From a virus (Duplodnaviria > Caudoviricetes): a DNA stretch of 64,000 nt. Every line of letters begins with the position of its first letter. The first letter of the stretch is position 1. Below are positions 24,709 through 32,778 of this stretch, in pieces. The stretch lies in IMG/VR virus record IMGVR_UViG_3300037418_002116. One strand, 5' to 3'. The notes beneath the pieces are model-generated. The model was not told where the DNA came from. It made no database searches and saw only the letters and a list, made by a program, of their open reading frames with translations. Position numbers and translations under genes: made by a program.

Positions 24709-26628
24709 TTACTCACCAAACTTACCTACGATTTCTTCGAATGCAACACCGGTACGGGTAGCGATGAAGTTCAAGCGAATGAATTCAGCTACACGTGCTG
24801 GCTTGATATAAATGTCACCTACCAATTCGTTGCGGTCGATAACTTCCGGAGTGTTGTTTGTTTCGTCGCAAACAACTTTGAAGTCATAGATACCACGACG
24901 GCCCTGAATATCACGCAAGAATGGTTCAACCATGTTGCGGAACTGTGCACGTGTGAATTCATCGTTGAATTCAAACAACTGGTAACGTGATGCCTTCGCA
25001 ATCGCCTTTTCGAGAACGATGAACAGACGACGGACGTTGATGCGGTCGAAAGCCGATGGCTTCGAAAGCAAGGTCTTCTGTCCGAAGAGAACCGTTCCAT
25101 CACCGGGGAATGTTGCCACCGGATTGATGTTGTTCTTGTAGAGCGTGTCACGGTCTGCTTGACGTGGATTCCAAGCGAGCTTGATCACGTTCTTGATCTG
25201 GCCACGGTTGAAACCGGCAGCGGCCCACCAAGGATCACGGTCTGTGTCGGTCTTAACGTGCAGACCGGCAATGTCACCGTTCATTGGAACGTAGCGGTAC
25301 AAATCGTTGTAACGATCATACTGCCATTTCCAGTTGTTATCGAGAGCCGCATATGAAGTAACAGGTAGAGTATTTCTGTATGTTACGATATCTGTAGCTT
25401 CGTCGCCCTTGTTGTTAACGGCATAGGCACGTGGTGGAGACAAGAACGCAACGCAATCAAGACGAACTTCACAGATATTGTTGATGATATATGTCGCCAA
25501 AGTCTGTGTAGCATCCGAACCAATAAGGATCGAAACTTCAACATCTTCCGGAGAAGCAAACAATGAATAACCACGAATCTTTTCAGAGTTTCCGATAGTT
25601 GTTCCATCAGAACCATGATCAAGCGAGTTATCGATTGGCAAAGTACCAGTCACAAAGGTTGTGGTTGATGCTTGGCTACCAGCGTTTGTCAAAGATGAAG
25701 GATGACCGGCCCAACGGATGTAGTCAGACTGTTGATTGATCACTTCCTTGTAATATGAAGTCGCACCATTGTCATACTTGGCATCAGCCGCCTTCGATAC
25801 TTTCTGGTATACTTCAAGAACTTCGCCACGCTGATTTGTCCATAGACCATCTTCGTCAACAACAACGATATGCATTTCGTCGGCAGAACCACCAAGGTTA
25901 GCAACGTAGTCGGAAGTACCCGGAGCGTTGTCAACTACAGTGTAGAATTCCCAACGACGCACGGCTGTTTGAGCCGTGCCACCAGCAAGGTGACGTGAAT
26001 CGAGAACCAACGAAGTTGTGTTGGAAATTGTTGCAACAGAGTGTGTTTCACCATTGATAACCAAAAGATCACCAACAACAAGTTGAGTGGTGAAGCTTGT
26101 TCCTGAACCGGTAACTGTTGTTGTGTTTGCAGTAACAGAAACCGTACCAGTCAAAGTAGACTGATAAGCAGATGCAGAAGGGCAAACAGATACTTTCAAA
26201 GAGTTACCCATTGCGCCAGCGAACTTAGCAATCCATGGGCCTGTATTGAAAGATGTTTGAAGATTTCCGGTATCGTATGAAGATGAATATTCATCATCGT
26301 TACGAACAAGAAAGCCCGCCGTACCGGCAGAAGCATTGGTTGCTCTTAGAGCGGTATTGGCGTTGTTGTCGTTAACAACACGAACAACCCAAAGATTGTT
26401 TGCGTATGCCAAGAAATTAGCAGCCGAGAACCAATCGTTGGCTACGGTATTATTTGGCTTCCAGAATGTATCAACAAGTTCTTGTTCAGAATCGATACTG
26501 ACAAGCTGATCTACTGGCCCCCACTGAAACGCACCGGCCAAACCACCTTCCGTAGTCGAAACCGCAGGAATAATGTTGGTTGTGTCGAATTCTTTTACGT
26601 ACACACCGGCTGATAAATAGAATGGCAT
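24709..26628 (-). CDS. gp18: Tail sheath protein
   Basis: SAGVYVKE, WWAAAGFNRG, FDRINVRRLF, IYIKPAR. Confidence 0.98.
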   Translation of the reverse strand: MPFYLSAGVYVKEFDTTNIIPAVSTTEGGLAGAFQWGPVDQLVSIDSEQELVDTFWKPNNTVANDWFSAANFLAYANNLWVVRVVNDNNANTALRATNASAGTAGFLVRNDDEYSSSYDTGNLQTSFNTGPWIAKFAGAMGNSLKVSVCPSASAYQSTLTGTVSVTANTTTVTGSGTSFTTQLVVGDLLVINGETHSVATISNTTSLVLDSRHLAGGTAQTAVRRWEFYTVVDNAPGTSDYVANLGGSADEMHIVVVDEDGLWTNQRGEVLEVYQKVSKAADAKYDNGATSYYKEVINQQSDYIRWAGHPSSLTNAGSQASTTTFVTGTLPIDNSLDHGSDGTTIGNSEKIRGYSLFASPEDVEVSILIGSDATQTLATYIINNICEVRLDCVAFLSPPRAYAVNNKGDEATDIVTYRNTLPVTSYAALDNNWKWQYDRYNDLYRYVPMNGDIAGLHVKTDTDRDPWWAAAGFNRGQIKNVIKLAWNPRQADRDTLYKNNINPVATFPGDGTVLFGQKTLLSKPSAFDRINVRRLFIVLEKAIAKASRYQLFEFNDEFTRAQFRNMVEPFLRDIQGRRGIYDFKVVCDETNNTPEVIDRNELVGDIYIKPARVAEFIRLNFIATRTGVAFEEIVGKFGE

Positions 26629-26720: not shown

Positions 26721-27032
26721 ATGACCATTGGGGACATTATGGTAGATACTTCAAATCCGTTTTTTGGAAAAAAACATACCGCCGCTTCCCGCAAAAAAAT
26801 TAAAGAAAATCATGTCGGCATGACCGGCAAAAAACATTCCCCAGAAACGAAAGAAAAAATGTCAACGGCACACACGGGCCGGAATTGGGTTTACAAAGGA
26901 ATGGTCACCAAATCTATTCCGAGTGAAGAACTGGATTCCTATCTCGAAAGCGGTTGGTTGAGAGGCAGAGCTATCGATAAAAGAGGATCGAAGAGCTACA
27001 TGCTGAAATTTTTGTTCGAAAATTCCCCTTGA
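26721..27032 (+). CDS. NUMOD3-only protein (no nuclease domain)
   Basis: NPFFGKKHTAASRKKI and GMTGKKHSPETKEKMS; likely start ATG 26739. Confidence 0.7.
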   Translation: MTIGDIMVDTSNPFFGKKHTAASRKKIKENHVGMTGKKHSPETKEKMSTAHTGRNWVYKGMVTKSIPSEELDSYLESGWLRGRAIDKRGSKSYMLKFLFENSP

Positions 27033-27710: not shown

Positions 27711-27873
27711 ACCAAAGGTTGGCGATGTGGTCGCTTTCAACATGTTGCCGGATGCCGCATGGTTCGACGTGCTGGCAATCAATGGCTTCATCATGACCGT
27801 CCGTGAACACGGCACGGATTATGCTGAACAGCGCATCGACAAGGGCGGCGTAAAGCAGATTCGTAAGCCATGA
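27697..27873 (+). CDS. Small SH3-like hypothetical protein
   Basis: ATG 27697 with AGGAGG SD; MKKLEPKVGDVVAF. Confidence 0.65.
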   Translation: MKKLEPKVGDVVAFNMLPDAAWFDVLAINGFIMTVREHGTDYAEQRIDKGGVKQIRKP

Positions 27874-28235
27874 GAACCTATTATGTTTCGGCTTTGGATT
27901 TAACGACCGACGAAGTTCAGCTATATTCCTTCCCCACGCCTCAATATGGGGATAGCCCAGACAAGATCGATGGTGTAGGATTTTACCGCACCATCGTTTC
28001 CCTAAACGCTTTCTTCCATGGTGGCAGTTCTCATTATCGAAACTGGACCGACAAGCGTTTGTTCTCCCTCAAAACAGAACGGGAAGTTGAGTTTGAAAGG
28101 GAAAGAGGACGACTCGAAGGTGGTCCTACCATTCCTTTTTCGAGTCTTTTCGCTTTCTATCGACACATTGGTTACGACTACAAAGCCAAAAAATACACGA
28201 CCGGCGAAAAGCTCCATCCATATTCTAAATTTTGA
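27870..28235 (+). CDS. Hypothetical protein
   Basis: 121-aa ORF with ATGA coupling. Confidence 0.65.
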   Translation: MRTYYVSALDLTTDEVQLYSFPTPQYGDSPDKIDGVGFYRTIVSLNAFFHGGSSHYRNWTDKRLFSLKTEREVEFERERGRLEGGPTIPFSSLFAFYRHIGYDYKAKKYTTGEKLHPYSKF

Positions 28236-28296
28236 TTGACAAAAAGATTCCAATGTGGTACATATTGGATATCTGCAATCTTAATTAAGGAAATTT

Positions 28297-28824
28297 ATGG
28301 ATTATTTGTTTTGGGGATTAATGCTAATCCCATTTGCGTTTGCTGTTGCAGCTAGTGAATATGAGTCCATCGTCGCTGGCCTTGTCTCAATCGTTCTTGC
28401 TGCCGCTTTCTTTTATATCTTCACGGACTACAATCCGCTTCCTTGGATTGTCGCCAACCCCGGAACCGCTGCGATCTACACCGGTTTATATTTTGTGACC
28501 GGTGCGATATATTCCGTCGTGAAATGGCTGTATGTCGTGAACACATCGACGAACAGAATCAAAACGGATTTCGAGAGGTTCAAACTCAATAATCGTGATG
28601 ATACCTCAATCGAAGCCTTCAAAAAATCCGAATACAATAGCCTGAAAGTCTTGAAGAACAAGGCTCGAATCATGGGCTGGCTTGTCTGGTGGGTTCCGTC
28701 TCTCTTCTGGACTGTTACCCATGATCTTTTCCGCAAAATTTGGGATCACATTTACAATATGTTCTCCGGTTTGTACGAAAAGATCGTTTCTCGCAAGATC
28801 GATTCTACGCTGAAAGATTTCTAA
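28297..28824 (+). CDS. Membrane protein
   Basis: Several hydrophobic helices; promoter TTGACA-17-TACATA at 28236-28264. Confidence 0.7.
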   Translation: MDYLFWGLMLIPFAFAVAASEYESIVAGLVSIVLAAAFFYIFTDYNPLPWIVANPGTAAIYTGLYFVTGAIYSVVKWLYVVNTSTNRIKTDFERFKLNNRDDTSIEAFKKSEYNSLKVLKNKARIMGWLVWWVPSLFWTVTHDLFRKIWDHIYNMFSGLYEKIVSRKIDSTLKDF

Positions 28825-28869
28825 TTTTTCTGCTTGACTCTTAAAAGCGAATAGATTATACATATACTC

Positions 28870-29190
28870 GTTGTGATGAAGACGACTGAAAGGTATTCAG
28901 GACTCGGGGGCGGAACCCGACTAGTCCACCACAACCAGATAGAGGGACGAAAGCCCGGCCAATAACACGGCGTCGTATGATGGCTGGCGTTCTATCTGGT
29001 TATGATGGGCTAGAAACAGGATCGACTGGTACGTAATAGGAAGTTGGAGCAACCGGCATTGTACCGCCGTTATCGGGCTAAACACAATAAGAGACAACGA
29101 TAACTTCGTTCCTCTGGCAATCGCTGCCTAATCAGCAGTAGCCAATGAGTTTTGGCGGTTGAACTTGGAAACAGAATCAACCGCCGCTTC
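28870..29190 (+). ncRNA. ssrA: Circularly permuted (two-piece) tmRNA
   Basis: Acceptor piece ends CTAGTCCACCA (28931); coding piece starts GGGCTAGAAACAGGATCGAC (29007); G3-U70 pair; tag frame DNDNFVPLAIAA* at 29093-29131; promoter TTGACT-17-TATACA at 28834. Confidence 0.9.
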
Positions 29191-29207
29191 TATTTTCAGG
29201 AAAAAAT

Positions 29208-29522
29208 TTGAGTAGAATATTAACCAACGGCGCACTTGTGCCGGAAGACAATTCCCATACAGAAATCAATCCGGTCACAGGTCAACAAAAGGCTTATGTG
29301 ATTCTCTCGGAAGACGAACGGGCCAAGGGCTTCGTTCGCCCGCTTCGCAGAAGCTACAAACACACAGTGTGTGGAACCGAAACCACGATGGGTCAAGCCA
29401 TCGCTGAAACCTACGCTCGTAATCCGAAATTTTATTCTGCCACCTTCTGTTGTCAGTGCAAAACACATAAGCCTCTAAACGAATTTCATTGGTCCGGTAC
29501 AACGGAAATTGTTGGATCATGA
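29208..29522 (+). CDS. Phage hypothetical protein with putative zinc ligands
   Basis: HTVCG...FCCQC; TTG start. Confidence 0.7.
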   Translation: MSRILTNGALVPEDNSHTEINPVTGQQKAYVILSEDERAKGFVRPLRRSYKHTVCGTETTMGQAIAETYARNPKFYSATFCCQCKTHKPLNEFHWSGTTEIVGS

Positions 29523-29743
29523 AAAAAGATTTAGACCCAGATTTTTGGGATGACTTCGTTTTCTTGGCCCAATCCTTTGCTTCGATCATGCAAGGCGATG
29601 TTTATGACCATCGCATAAATGGCGCATATGCCATCATGAAAAAATATGGATTGGACGAATACGGATGTCCACCGGAAGACGAAGAAGACGACACGCCAGT
29701 TCCTATGATTCCGGCTAAGAAGCCGAAACAGGCGTTGGATTGA
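29519..29743 (+). CDS. Hypothetical protein
   Basis: ATGA-coupled start at 29519. Confidence 0.6.
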   Translation: MKKDLDPDFWDDFVFLAQSFASIMQGDVYDHRINGAYAIMKKYGLDEYGCPPEDEEDDTPVPMIPAKKPKQALD

Positions 29744-29970
29744 GCGACTTCCTAAATGACTTCGAATCGTTATTCGGAGTCCCTGATAAGCCGAAGCGAG
29801 ACTTCACCAAAGAAGTCCAGACAACCCAAGCAAATCCAGATGCCAAAAAGCTGATAACCATTCGGCTTGATCGGGATATTATAGCTTATTTTCAACAGCA
29901 AGGCGAAGGGTATCAAACCCGTATCAATAATGCCTTGCGGGAATTTATGAATCAACGATTAAAGAAATAA
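29740..29970 (+). CDS. brnA: BrnA-like antitoxin (ribbon-helix-helix), orphan
   Basis: KLITIRLDRDIIAYFQQQGEGYQTRINNALREF. Confidence 0.8.
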   Translation: MSDFLNDFESLFGVPDKPKRDFTKEVQTTQANPDAKKLITIRLDRDIIAYFQQQGEGYQTRINNALREFMNQRLKK

Positions 29971-30359: not shown

Positions 30360-30561
30360 TTTTTCGAAGGAAGTTGAAAAATTTGTTCTGGAAACCGGTT
30401 CCGATTACATGGATGCCGTATTGCATATCTGTCAAGTGAGAGATATCGAGCCCGAGACAGCCGCCAAGCTTATAAACGCCAATGTCAAAGGTATGATCGA
30501 AAAGGAAGCCAGCGATCTAAACCTTTTGGAAGAGAAACCACAATCACTGGAATTTGAATGA
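30325..30561 (+). CDS. gp33: Late transcription coactivator
   Basis: FSKEVEKFV...YMDAVLHIC...EPETAAKLINANVKGMIEKEA..LNLL. Confidence 0.9.
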   Translation: MNSLPNILTKDSFSKEVEKFVLETGSDYMDAVLHICQVRDIEPETAAKLINANVKGMIEKEASDLNLLEEKPQSLEFE

Positions 30562-31163
30562 TTTCTCCCGAGCGAACGAAACAGATTTTTGTTGCTCTTC
30601 GTTTGCACTTCACCGGCTCATACGACTACATCAAATATCAAGGCAAGACTCGGACCGGACTAAAGCCAGCGGAAACATGGGCAGTCGAAAAGATCGCCTT
30701 CAAATTCCAGAACGAAGAAGCTATTAAAGATTTCTTTGTCGCCAATATGATCGACGGTTTTGTGAAGACCGGAAAAATAGGCTCATTCATCAATGCCTAT
30801 GCCAACAAAGATGCGACAGAAATTTATGAAAAATCGACAAATTGGTATAACGCCTCATACAATCTGACTTCGGATTTGAACAAGTTCGATGGTCTGAAAG
30901 ATTTGACCGTCTGTGTCGATGGCAATCATCCAAAAATTTTCCAAGCGGTTTTGGAAAATGAAATTTCGATTTTCACCATGGCTTGTGTGATGCTATTTTT
31001 AGGTGATCGAATTGTCGATTACTGGACTAAAAATTGTGATGATACAGTATTGTTTGGGGACTATATTCGATTTTTGAAGAAATATGTCCCGCTCATACCA
31101 AAAGATAATGAAAAGATAAAAGAAGCAATCAGTAGTTACAACTATAAACATAGGAATATATGA
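30558..31163 (+). CDS. gp59: Helicase loader
   Basis: ALRLHFT.SYDYIKYQGK; position between gp33 and gp32. Confidence 0.85.
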   Translation: MISPERTKQIFVALRLHFTGSYDYIKYQGKTRTGLKPAETWAVEKIAFKFQNEEAIKDFFVANMIDGFVKTGKIGSFINAYANKDATEIYEKSTNWYNASYNLTSDLNKFDGLKDLTVCVDGNHPKIFQAVLENEISIFTMACVMLFLGDRIVDYWTKNCDDTVLFGDYIRFLKKYVPLIPKDNEKIKEAISSYNYKHRNI

Positions 31164-31902: not shown

Positions 31903-32778
31903 ATGTCACTATCCCTTTCGGACTTGAAAAAGTCCTCGAAATCCCGTCTCGATAACCTAATCACAAAATCCCAAGCAAATTCCGAACAAGGCGCTAAAGA
32001 CGCTCGCTTTTGGCAACCAACCGTTGACAAAGCTGGCAATGGCAACGCTCTTATTCGCTTCCTCCCTGCATCAAAGGAAGATGGTATTGACGCTCTCCCA
32101 TGGGTGAAGTACTTTGAACACGGCTTCAAAGGCCCATCGGGCAAGTGGTATATCGAAAAATCCCTTACTTCGCTAGGTCAGAAAGACCCCGTTTCCGAGT
32201 ATAATTCTATGCTTTGGAACAAGGGGACCGATGAAGCCAAGGAAATCGCACGTGCACAGAAGCGCAAGCTTGTGTTTGTGTCGAACATTCTGGTAATTAC
32301 CGATCCGGGTAATCCAGAAAACAACGGCAAAGTATTCCTGTTCAAGTATGGTCAAAAGATTTTTGAGAAGATCAAGAATATCATGACTCCGGATGAAGCA
32401 CTTGGTGAAGAACCAAATGATCCGTTCGATTTCTGGACAGGCCAGAACTTCAAGCTTAAGATCAAGAAAGTTGGCGATTTCCGCAACTACGATGACTCTA
32501 GCTTCGCAACTCCATCTGTTCTGTTCAAGAAAGATGAAGAAATCGAAGCCGTCTGGAATTCGCAGTACTCGCTATCGGAATTCCTTGATCCGAAGAACTA
32601 CGAAAATTATGACGATCTTCAAAAGAAGCTTCATGAAGTCCTACAGATTCAGACCGAATCTGTTTCAACGACCGCTGAACGCCTTTCTATGAAGGTTGAT
32701 GCCGAAGTAGCAAGCGCTGATGCAGAAGTCGAAAGCGGTGAAGACGCCGATTTGGACGAAATTCTGAAAAACTTGTAA
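31903..32778 (+). CDS. gp32: Single-stranded DNA-binding protein
   Basis: DARFWQPTVDKAGNG.A.IRFLP, WYIEKSLTSLGQKDPVSEYN, DPFDFW.G.NFKLKI; acidic tail. Confidence 0.97.
   Translation: MSLSLSDLKKSSKSRLDNLITKSQANSEQGAKDARFWQPTVDKAGNGNALIRFLPASKEDGIDALPWVKYFEHGFKGPSGKWYIEKSLTSLGQKDPVSEYNSMLWNKGTDEAKEIARAQKRKLVFVSNILVITDPGNPENNGKVFLFKYGQKIFEKIKNIMTPDEALGEEPNDPFDFWTGQNFKLKIKKVGDFRNYDDSSFATPSVLFKKDEEIEAVWNSQYSLSEFLDPKNYENYDDLQKKLHEVLQIQTESVSTTAERLSMKVDAEVASADAEVESGEDADLDEILKNL

Follow-up and report, generated by a model that had tools for sequence, protein, structure and literature searches.

Does a T4-like phage of the soil carry a working gene of its own for the RNA that frees stalled ribosomes? 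The question is raised by one locus in IMG/VR record IMGVR_UViG_3300037418_002116, of which a stretch of 64,000 nucleotides was analysed (hereafter, the window) and in which an initial annotation, made from the sequence alone, had placed a phage-encoded two-piece transfer-messenger RNA (tmRNA) at positions 28870-29190. The analysis reveals a tmRNA gene that is complete, structurally constrained, phage-borne, and conserved in position. Judging from the sequence, we consider it likely that this gene is a functional ssrA of a lytic T4-like soil phage, specifying a circularly permuted tmRNA of the alphaproteobacterial type.

The permuted alphaproteobacterial layout is borne out by two full-length matches in an Rfam cmscan of the window together with the sequence itself, and the proposed span fits the RNA. 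RF01849 (alpha_tmRNA), the family whose search had been suggested along with the annotation, was matched at 28830-29185 (+) with 126.3 bits (gathering threshold 50, E-value 4.8e-34, model positions 1-355), while RF04321 (tmRNA_permuted) was matched at 28870-29131 with 109.2 bits (gathering threshold 47, model positions 1-213). The additional 40 nt on the 5' side of the alpha_tmRNA alignment are the promoter region, to which the model aligns a 5' flank of its own. This identification is further strengthened by the minimum free energy (MFE) of the RNA, which has a z-score of -3.72 and is equalled by none of 100 shuffled sequences; together with the very small E-values, it argues against a chance match. 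Five elements reappear in the MFE fold: T-arm, acceptor stem, spacer stem, helix 5, and end hairpin. The order of the parts in the window is permuted, with the acceptor piece ahead of an intervening spacer and the coding piece starting only after it, as the following features illustrate.

28834..28862, +: predicted sigma-70-type promoter (-35 TTGACT at 28834-28839, 17-nt spacer, -10 TATACA at 28857-28862)
28870..28931, +: acceptor piece (Rfam alignments, sequence, regular-expression check of the acceptor, covariation in P2a, T-stem, and acceptor stem)
28870-28901, +: 5' strands of helix P2, within the acceptor piece
28904-28920, +: T-arm, stem UCGGG/CCCGA (5 bp) and loop GGCGGAA (7 nt), read from the sequence
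28921-28927, +: acceptor 3' strand CUAGUCC, followed by discriminator A28928 and the encoded CCA at 28929-28931
28932..29006, +: intervening spacer, 75 nt, with an 11-bp basal stem of 28933-28943 with 28991-29001 (MFE and centroid folds)
29007..29052, +: start of the coding piece (acceptor 5' strand, D-loop analogue, 3' strands of P2)
29007-29013, +: acceptor 5' strand GGGCUAG, with G3 at 29009; seven pairs, the third being G-U
29014-29026, +: D-loop analogue AAACAGGAUCGAC
29053..29082, +: pseudoknot 1 (PK1) block, 30 nt, the left edge of the module common to the window and its relative L122
29088 and 29089, +: frame-setting U at -5 and A at -4
29093..29131, +: tag frame, from GAC at 29093-29095 through frame DNDNFVPLAIAA to stop TAA at 29129-29131
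29124..29138, +: helix 5 (CUGC with GCAG), stop codon in the loop (from the fold; the same arrangement is found in the Rfam alpha consensus)
29154..29196, +: terminal hairpin, 29154-29162 with 29177-29185, its loop holding ACUUGGAAACAGAA, then a U-rich tail to 29196

Within the tRNA-like half, the annotated G3-U70 acceptor stem and encoded CCA could both be read directly, the complementarity of the acceptor strands being checked by regular expression. The acceptor stem GGGCUAG/CUAGUCC has three pairs unlike those of the family consensus, each of them compensated. The T-loop had been described as non-canonical; the loop GGCGGAA is present, but it follows the norm of the alpha family (consensus GGCGGUA) and differs only by U to A at the sixth base, a position that is also C, G, or A among IMG/VR copies. 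The D-loop analogue AAACAGGAUCGAC is identical in the canonical ssrA of Pseudaminobacter soli, and the outer and inner segments of helix P2 pair and covary among phage copies.

The promoter, whose -35 and -10 hexamers are the same in a second relative, L123, would place the start of the transcript near G28870, the first base of the RNA. A promoter scanner did not call TTGACT-17-TATACA, because its rule needs a T at the last -10 position, and listed instead the overlapping TTAAAA-16-TATACT at 28841-28868. At the other end, the terminal hairpin has 9+3 pairs that are kept in all six phage copies compared, and its loop motif matches the Rfam alpha consensus; the hairpin and U-rich tail likely form the 3' end or terminator of the coding piece.

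Conservation of the gene and its fold among related phages

The label "phage-encoded" holds up in two ways, since T4-type structural and replication genes surround the gene and two related viral contigs each have a tmRNA at the corresponding position. The flanking genes in the window are the tail sheath gene gp18 (24709-26628) on one side and the helicase loader gene gp59 (30558-31163) and gp32 (31903-32778) on the other, with the tmRNA gene lying in an early cluster upstream of gp59 and gp32. Relatives were found in IMG/VR via gp32. In L122 (gp32 93% identical to that of the window, sheath DNA 88%) and L123 (gp32 79%, sheath DNA 75%), as in the window, a permuted tmRNA lies about 2.85 kb upstream of gp32. 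More distant gp32 loci have a tmRNA in the same slot as well, of alpha type in L178 and L189 and of beta type in L188. Overall, among 54 related loci with at least 3 kb of sequence ahead of gp32, a structural pattern search detected such an upstream tmRNA in at least 11, which represent several T-loop types.

The fold itself is shared. RNAalifold, applied to six phage copies at the slot upstream of gp32, yielded a consensus with P2a, T-arm, acceptor stem, spacer base, first PK1 stem, and end hairpin, 48 predicted pairs in all. In 25 of these, both partners have changed while pairing is preserved, and the G-U pair of the acceptor stem is the same in every copy (6/6). Moreover, two pairs of the 11-bp spacer stem have changed between the window and L123, each in a compensated way, and the stem is supported across five phage copies. 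Taken together, this compensatory pattern in the aligned sequences is that of an RNA under selection for its fold and not of a relic.

The beta-type copy deserves separate mention. It is a two-piece tmRNA at L188:3174-3560 (+), scoring 122 bits and carrying the tag AANDERFALAA, on a T4-like contig whose gp32 is 56% identical to that of the window. The slot is thus filled by tmRNAs of different bacterial lineages.

The aspartate resume codon and the exchange of tRNA-like halves

The message half begins with the PK1 block, which is identical or nearly so in L122, in L123, in 65 metagenome loci, and in canonical ssrA genes of Hyphomicrobiales. Its first stem is predicted by the Rfam alignment and by RNAalifold, and the block, a putative pseudoknot, matches host ssrA exactly. 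The tag sequence and C-terminal Ala-Ala given in the initial annotation agree with the frame DNDNFVPLAIAA and its TAA stop, and the same is true of the GAC (Asp) resume codon that it had placed after AAUAAGA. Specifically, both Rfam alignments have GAC where the consensus has GCA, ahead of a conserved AAC GAY AAC; ARAGORN, run on the 88%-identical relative L122, reads the same frame and gives DNDNFVPLAVAA; and the U at -5 and A at -4 ahead of GAC are spaced like U85 and A86 of E. coli, of which A86 chiefly sets the frame (Miller et al. 2008). The agreement of these three lines identifies GAC as the resume codon. The alanine codon GCN, which is usual for the family without defining it, is therefore replaced here by one for Asp. 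Since the Ala on the RNA itself would be added ahead of the templated residues, the product would end in ADNDNFVPLAIAA.

Two changes separate the tag frames of the window and L122, a synonymous one from GCA to GCT and a conservative one from Ile to Val, and GAC is kept, while L123 has an ordinary GCA resume codon and an ANDN tag start. The NDNF motif and the Ala-Ala end of the window tag are host-like. In all 64 parsed metagenomic tmRNAs that share the 30-nt PK1 block, the resume codon is GCN and the tag starts with ANDN, so that among sharers of the block GAC was seen only in the window and L122. On IMG/VR contigs, a non-Ala resume codon was found in 5 of 70 parsed alpha-type tmRNAs (Val twice, Asp, Ser, and His). 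These counts are rough, the anchored regular-expression parser having handled 70 of 120 viral loci and 14 of 77 genome loci.

An Asp codon in this role has been described before: Burks et al. 2005 (PMC1168896) list it in three sequences, such as that of Staphylococcus epidermidis, beside Gly in 30 and also Arg, Ser, and Glu. The window RNA resembles those non-Ala tmRNAs in pairing Asp as the first templated residue with a tRNA-like part that remains an alanine acceptor; it differs in that the named Asp example is not alphaproteobacterial, whereas here the codon sits in an alpha-type two-piece RNA. In this data set, the Asp codon was seen only in phage-associated copies, namely the window, L122, and L029, whose sequence is the same as that of L270. 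The L029 copy (831-1112, -) is an alpha-type tmRNA with a GAC resume codon (DNDNTVMALAA) and a GGCGGAA T-loop on a 455-kb IMG/VR contig. L270:644-925 (+) is an identical copy, on a contig binned as a metagenome-assembled genome of Gammaproteobacteria.

Two further viral contigs, L202 (5730-6062, +) and L205 (9367-9740, -), carry a tmRNA with the same end hairpin as the window; one frame of its tag reads EWKHFRWLPRAA from a GAA codon, and another ends in METLPLAA. A match to the tag-start pattern in L206 proved to be chance, with no tmRNA at that place.

Comparison with L122 reveals that the two halves of the gene have different histories. From the PK1 block to the end hairpin (133 nt), the window is 95% identical to L122 and 79% identical to L123. 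Left of PK1, over the promoter, P2, T-arm, acceptor, spacer, and D-loop analogue, identity to L122 is 47% over the longer sequence (87 of 117 aligned) with no BLAST hit, and identity to L123 is 85% of aligned positions. In BLAST, the breakpoint relative to L122 lies precisely at 29053, where the last P2 strand meets PK1 and the tRNA-like part of the molecule gives way to the message-like part. There, L122:5043-5271 (228 nt) takes the place of window 27784-29052, a stretch that comprises the tRNA-like half and two upstream open reading frames (ORFs), 27870-28235 and 28297-28824, both of which are missing in L122. The tRNA-like half of L122 is likewise complete, comprising a promoter of its own, a T-loop of canonical type (UUCAAAU), a GGGGGUG/CACCUCC acceptor stem with G3-U70, and CCA. 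Because the more distant L123 has the tRNA-like half of the window, the swap most likely happened in the L122 lineage. Exact-pattern scans of IMG/VR returned no match for the acceptor and D-loop of the window and only the contig of L122 itself for its T-arm and acceptor; neither scan yielded a donor for either half or any additional relative.

The window and L122 thus constitute a natural experiment, in which the tag half is 95% identical, the tRNA-like halves are unrelated, and the genomes are otherwise 80-88% identical, and the pair shows that the halves of a tmRNA are exchangeable in nature at a structural boundary. A further step, which we offer as an unlikely speculation, would be to regard the phage tmRNA as two exchangeable cassettes that recombine at the P2/PK1 boundary. 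The tRNA-like cassette (promoter, P2, T-arm, acceptor, and spacer) would fit the alanyl-tRNA synthetase (AlaRS), SmpB, and RNase P of the host, and the message cassette (PK1, tag, and end hairpin) would carry the tag of the phage lineage, its first templated residue switched to Asp so as to make adaptors distinguish phage-made tags from those of the host. On this view, swaps would follow changes of host, and the degradation signal in the tag would be under phage control and not a host copy.

Proposed role and the alternatives to it

Under the functional reading, host RNA polymerase would transcribe about 325 nt from the early sigma-70-type promoter. The 75-nt spacer, whose 11-bp stem extends the acceptor helix, would then be removed through a cut by RNase P on the 5' side of G29007 and trimming of the 3' side to the encoded CCA, a scheme that follows the two-piece tmRNA of Caulobacter as outlined by Keiler, Shapiro and Williams (2000). 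The products would be an acceptor piece of 62 nt and a coding piece some 185 nt long, joined via the acceptor stem and helix P2. Once charged by host AlaRS through G3-U70, the RNA would be carried by host SmpB and EF-Tu to ribosomes stalled on broken mRNAs, where translation would resume on GAC, adding (A)DNDNFVPLAIAA, and the Ala-Ala end would send the product to ClpXP. The benefit is probably extra capacity for ribosome rescue early in infection, while host mRNAs and tRNAs are being cut. The partners of the RNA are presumably the SmpB, AlaRS, EF-Tu, and RNase P of the host; for SmpB, this is presumed because the protein was not found in the contigs of L122 (85% complete) or L123 (100% complete), in a search whose control was positive in 10 of 14 known genomes.

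Several observations weigh against this functional reading. The middle helix of P2 has two non-standard pairs in the Rfam register, although in our own reading a shift of one to two bases (CGAC with GUUG) restores its pairing. The end hairpin is imperfect as a terminator and went uncalled by a terminator scanner, since its T run begins 7 nt past the stem. The absence of a phage SmpB is deduced from the relatives only, the phage's own genome being readable over 64 kb. The gene is strongly diverged, with 126 bits where host ssrA genes score 303-308. Finally, ARAGORN, which had been put forward as a check, reported three tRNAs in the window and not the tmRNA, while calling the sibling genes in L122 and L123. 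The likely cause is the A at the sixth T-loop position, because both copies with GGCGGAA that were run (window and L029) were missed and L123, with GGCAGUA, was called. The tmRNAs of L178 and L202 were also missed. With four of the genes examined escaping ARAGORN, the program behind the published phage tmRNA census, phage tmRNAs are likely undercounted, and covariance models are advisable alongside it in such searches.

The low score relative to host genes (about 305 bits) and the ARAGORN miss are also what would be expected of a decaying or non-functional passenger, that is, host ssrA DNA gained by recombination, or of an RNA put to another use such as a decoy for host SmpB; the slot is, in addition, empty in 43 of the 54 related loci and in phage phiM12, so that the gene is dispensable for the phage group. 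Such a passenger is nevertheless quite improbable, given that every element needed for function is intact, that pair changes are compensatory across phages only 75-88% identical in the sheath gene, that the tag frame is open with conservative changes, and that the promoter is kept with L123. The replacement half in L122, also complete with G3-U70 and CCA, is likewise unlike decay. The idea that bacterial tmRNA DNA was joined to phage DNA by an error of metagenome assembly starts from the origin of the window in metagenome assemblies and from the identity of its PK1 block to bacterial ssrA. It is countered by phage genes close on both sides of the RNA gene, by two separate IMG/VR contigs with a tmRNA at the same position, and by the absence, among 77 genome and 65 metagenome loci, of any bacterial tmRNA that is close outside short conserved blocks. 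Moreover, 0.99-1.00 of the words of the 4-kb stretch at the gene recur in each of six sequencing runs from six soil or rhizosphere studies, and part of them in four more; an 847-nt contig of one of these four, run X7, covers 28455-29301, including the promoter, the RNA gene, and its flanks, without a single difference. As far as sequence data go, an assembly error is refuted, and we give it a negligible chance.

A different alternative accepts that the RNA is made and enters ribosomes, but holds that it serves to change the fate of tagged proteins and not merely to add rescue capacity. The tag would have been retuned, with Asp in place of Ala altering how SspB- or ClpA-type readers perceive its N-terminal part while Ala-Ala keeps recognition by ClpX; ends AADNDNFVPLAIAA and AANDNFVPLAIAA would then degrade at unequal rates in the host. 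The retention of GAC in both the window and L122, its absence from the 64 metagenomic tmRNAs with the same PK1 block, and the recurrence of non-Ala codons in IMG/VR all lend this some appeal, as do the existence of an SspB adaptor in Caulobacter and the possibility of selective tagging raised by Buchholz et al. We regard it as unlikely all the same, though slightly less so than a passenger: the remaining adaptor-type motif NDNF and the C-terminal degron are host-like, L123 combines the same tRNA-like half with the ordinary codon GCA and a tag of the ANDN type, ordinary bacterial tmRNAs with an Asp resume codon are known as well (Burks 2005), and two sequences are a very small sample. The conserved Asp codon bears on whether phages tune the degradation tag.

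Phage two-piece tmRNAs have been published before. Buchholz et al. 2022 (PMC9004378) found tmRNA in 402 of 18,146 phage genomes, with 53 of 133 unique structures being two-piece and 50 of those 53 marine or aquatic. In the Melnitz-like marine phages of the same study, ssrA is "common but not defining" (17 of 47 contigs) and has an early promoter by the late-transcription coactivator; the roles suggested with the initial annotation, in sustained ribosome rescue or in the fate of tagged proteins, are reasonable and were already proposed there for the Methylophilales phage Melnitz, and selective tagging was raised. By description, the window shares with Melnitz and the pelagimyophages a T4-like lytic myovirus genome, an alpha-type permuted tmRNA, an early promoter, and an early cluster near the coactivator, gp59, and gp32, as well as the presence of the gene in only part of the phage group (17/47 there, at least 11/54 loci here). 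It differs in coming from soil and rhizosphere and not seawater, in its Asp resume codon, in an RNA gene for which blastn found no match among 50,697 phage records, and in the glutamine riboswitch, which Rfam did not find in the window. The likeness to the two-piece tmRNA of Caulobacter crescentus and other alphaproteobacteria extends through the gene order, the GGCGGNA T-loop, G3-U70, the D-loop analogue, the PK1 block, the xNDN tag start, the Ala-Ala end, the stop codon in the loop of helix 5, and the ACYUGG-AACAGAA loop of the terminal hairpin, whereas carriage by a phage, the lower score (126 vs 303-308 bits), the three changed acceptor pairs, the T-loop A for U, and GAC for GCN set the window RNA apart. 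What distinguishes the present case is the soil origin, the ARAGORN miss, the conserved Asp codon, and the exchange of the tRNA-like half in the closest relative. The finding adds a soil, T4-like lineage that probably infects Hyphomicrobiales to the phages with two-piece tmRNAs, which have so far been almost only marine or freshwater; on its own, it matters little.

The phage, its likely host, and neighboring observations

The window belongs to an uncultured T4-like myovirus from soil and rhizosphere metagenomes. Beyond the genes that flank the tmRNA, it encodes the gp20 portal, a scaffold protein, the gp23 major head protein, baseplate wedge proteins, a gp41-type helicase, and an SbcC-like gp46; no integrase was met in the window, in an analysis that included no search aimed at integrases. 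Megablast of 20 kb against the 50,697 phage records matched only 258 nt of the sheath gene, at 82% identity to the phiM12 group. This group of Sinorhizobium phages (Emdodecavirus), the nearest cultured relatives by DNA, belongs to the T4 superfamily, has an alphaproteobacterial host, and is similar in structural gene order. It differs in showing no megablast similarity outside the sheath gene, and phiM12 itself gave no alpha_tmRNA match even at E-values up to 1. By gp32, the nearest cultured phages are cyanomyoviruses, with at most 56% identity, and the closest of these, S-SRM01 (56%), has no tmRNA annotated near gp32.

A host among the Hyphomicrobiales is suggested by the identity of the PK1 block and D-loop analogue to the ssrA of Pseudaminobacter soli, by the tags of the tmRNAs that share the PK1 block, and by the link to phiM12, and it should be read as suggestive only, with soil Phyllobacteriaceae or Rhizobiaceae as the best guesses. 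The tags ANDNYAEARLAA and ANDNYAPVAQAA, both of rhizobial type, occur among the metagenomic tmRNAs with the PK1 block, and ANDNYAEARLAA is the tag of two canonical ssrA genes of Phyllobacteriaceae. As candidate donor hosts, 77 bacterial loci with a GGCGGAA T-loop were examined and rejected, none being near the window RNA beyond conserved blocks. Four loci that had matched the pattern (L207, L211, L236, and L241) gave no Rfam tmRNA when rescanned.

Second tmRNAs were observed in two soil species of this order. Aquamicrobium soli has a diverged alpha-type copy of 70 bits (L233:5217-5545, -) beside its canonical ssrA of 308 bits, and Pseudaminobacter soli has one of 89 bits (L272:1997-2308, -) beside a canonical ssrA of 303 bits, the canonical copies of the two species lying in L349 and L350. 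Both second copies have the GGCGGAA T-loop, and that of Aquamicrobium soli also has a spacer stem like that of the window. It lies in a prophage, beside the genes for the large terminase and the portal, and resumes on a Val codon (VNDNVPLADRRVAA), while the copy of Pseudaminobacter soli adjoins a gene for an RtcB RNA ligase. Diverged alpha-type tmRNAs thus also travel on mobile elements of soil Hyphomicrobiales, namely the prophage of Aquamicrobium soli and perhaps the RtcB-linked locus of Pseudaminobacter soli.

Each of the six runs that contain all or nearly all of the 4-kb stretch was marked as a possible source of the window DNA, and none of the 10 runs with the locus is an RNA run. Contigs from four DNA runs were short and identical to the window, besides one. 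This 602-nt contig of run X7 represents another soil tmRNA, which matches window 29080-29153 only, at about 82% (13 differences in 74 nt), shares the Ile-to-Val change with L122, and is unlike the window in both flanks, hinting at more mosaic relatives.

Around the tmRNA gene, three smaller features were observed. Between the sheath gene and the early cluster with the tmRNA, a small ORF at 26721-27032 (+) contains NUMOD3 motifs (Pfam, E-value 2.4e-13), which are typical of the DNA-binding modules of homing endonucleases. About 550 nt downstream of the tmRNA gene, a 76-residue ORF at 29740-29970 (+) matches a PHROG antitoxin of a toxin-antitoxin system (E-value 1.2e-13). Directly past the end hairpin, about 178 nt (29227-29404) are missing in L122, in which an ORF with an ATG start opens at the equivalent position; the window ORF at 29208-29522, which has a TTG start and no family match, may not be a real gene over its whole length.

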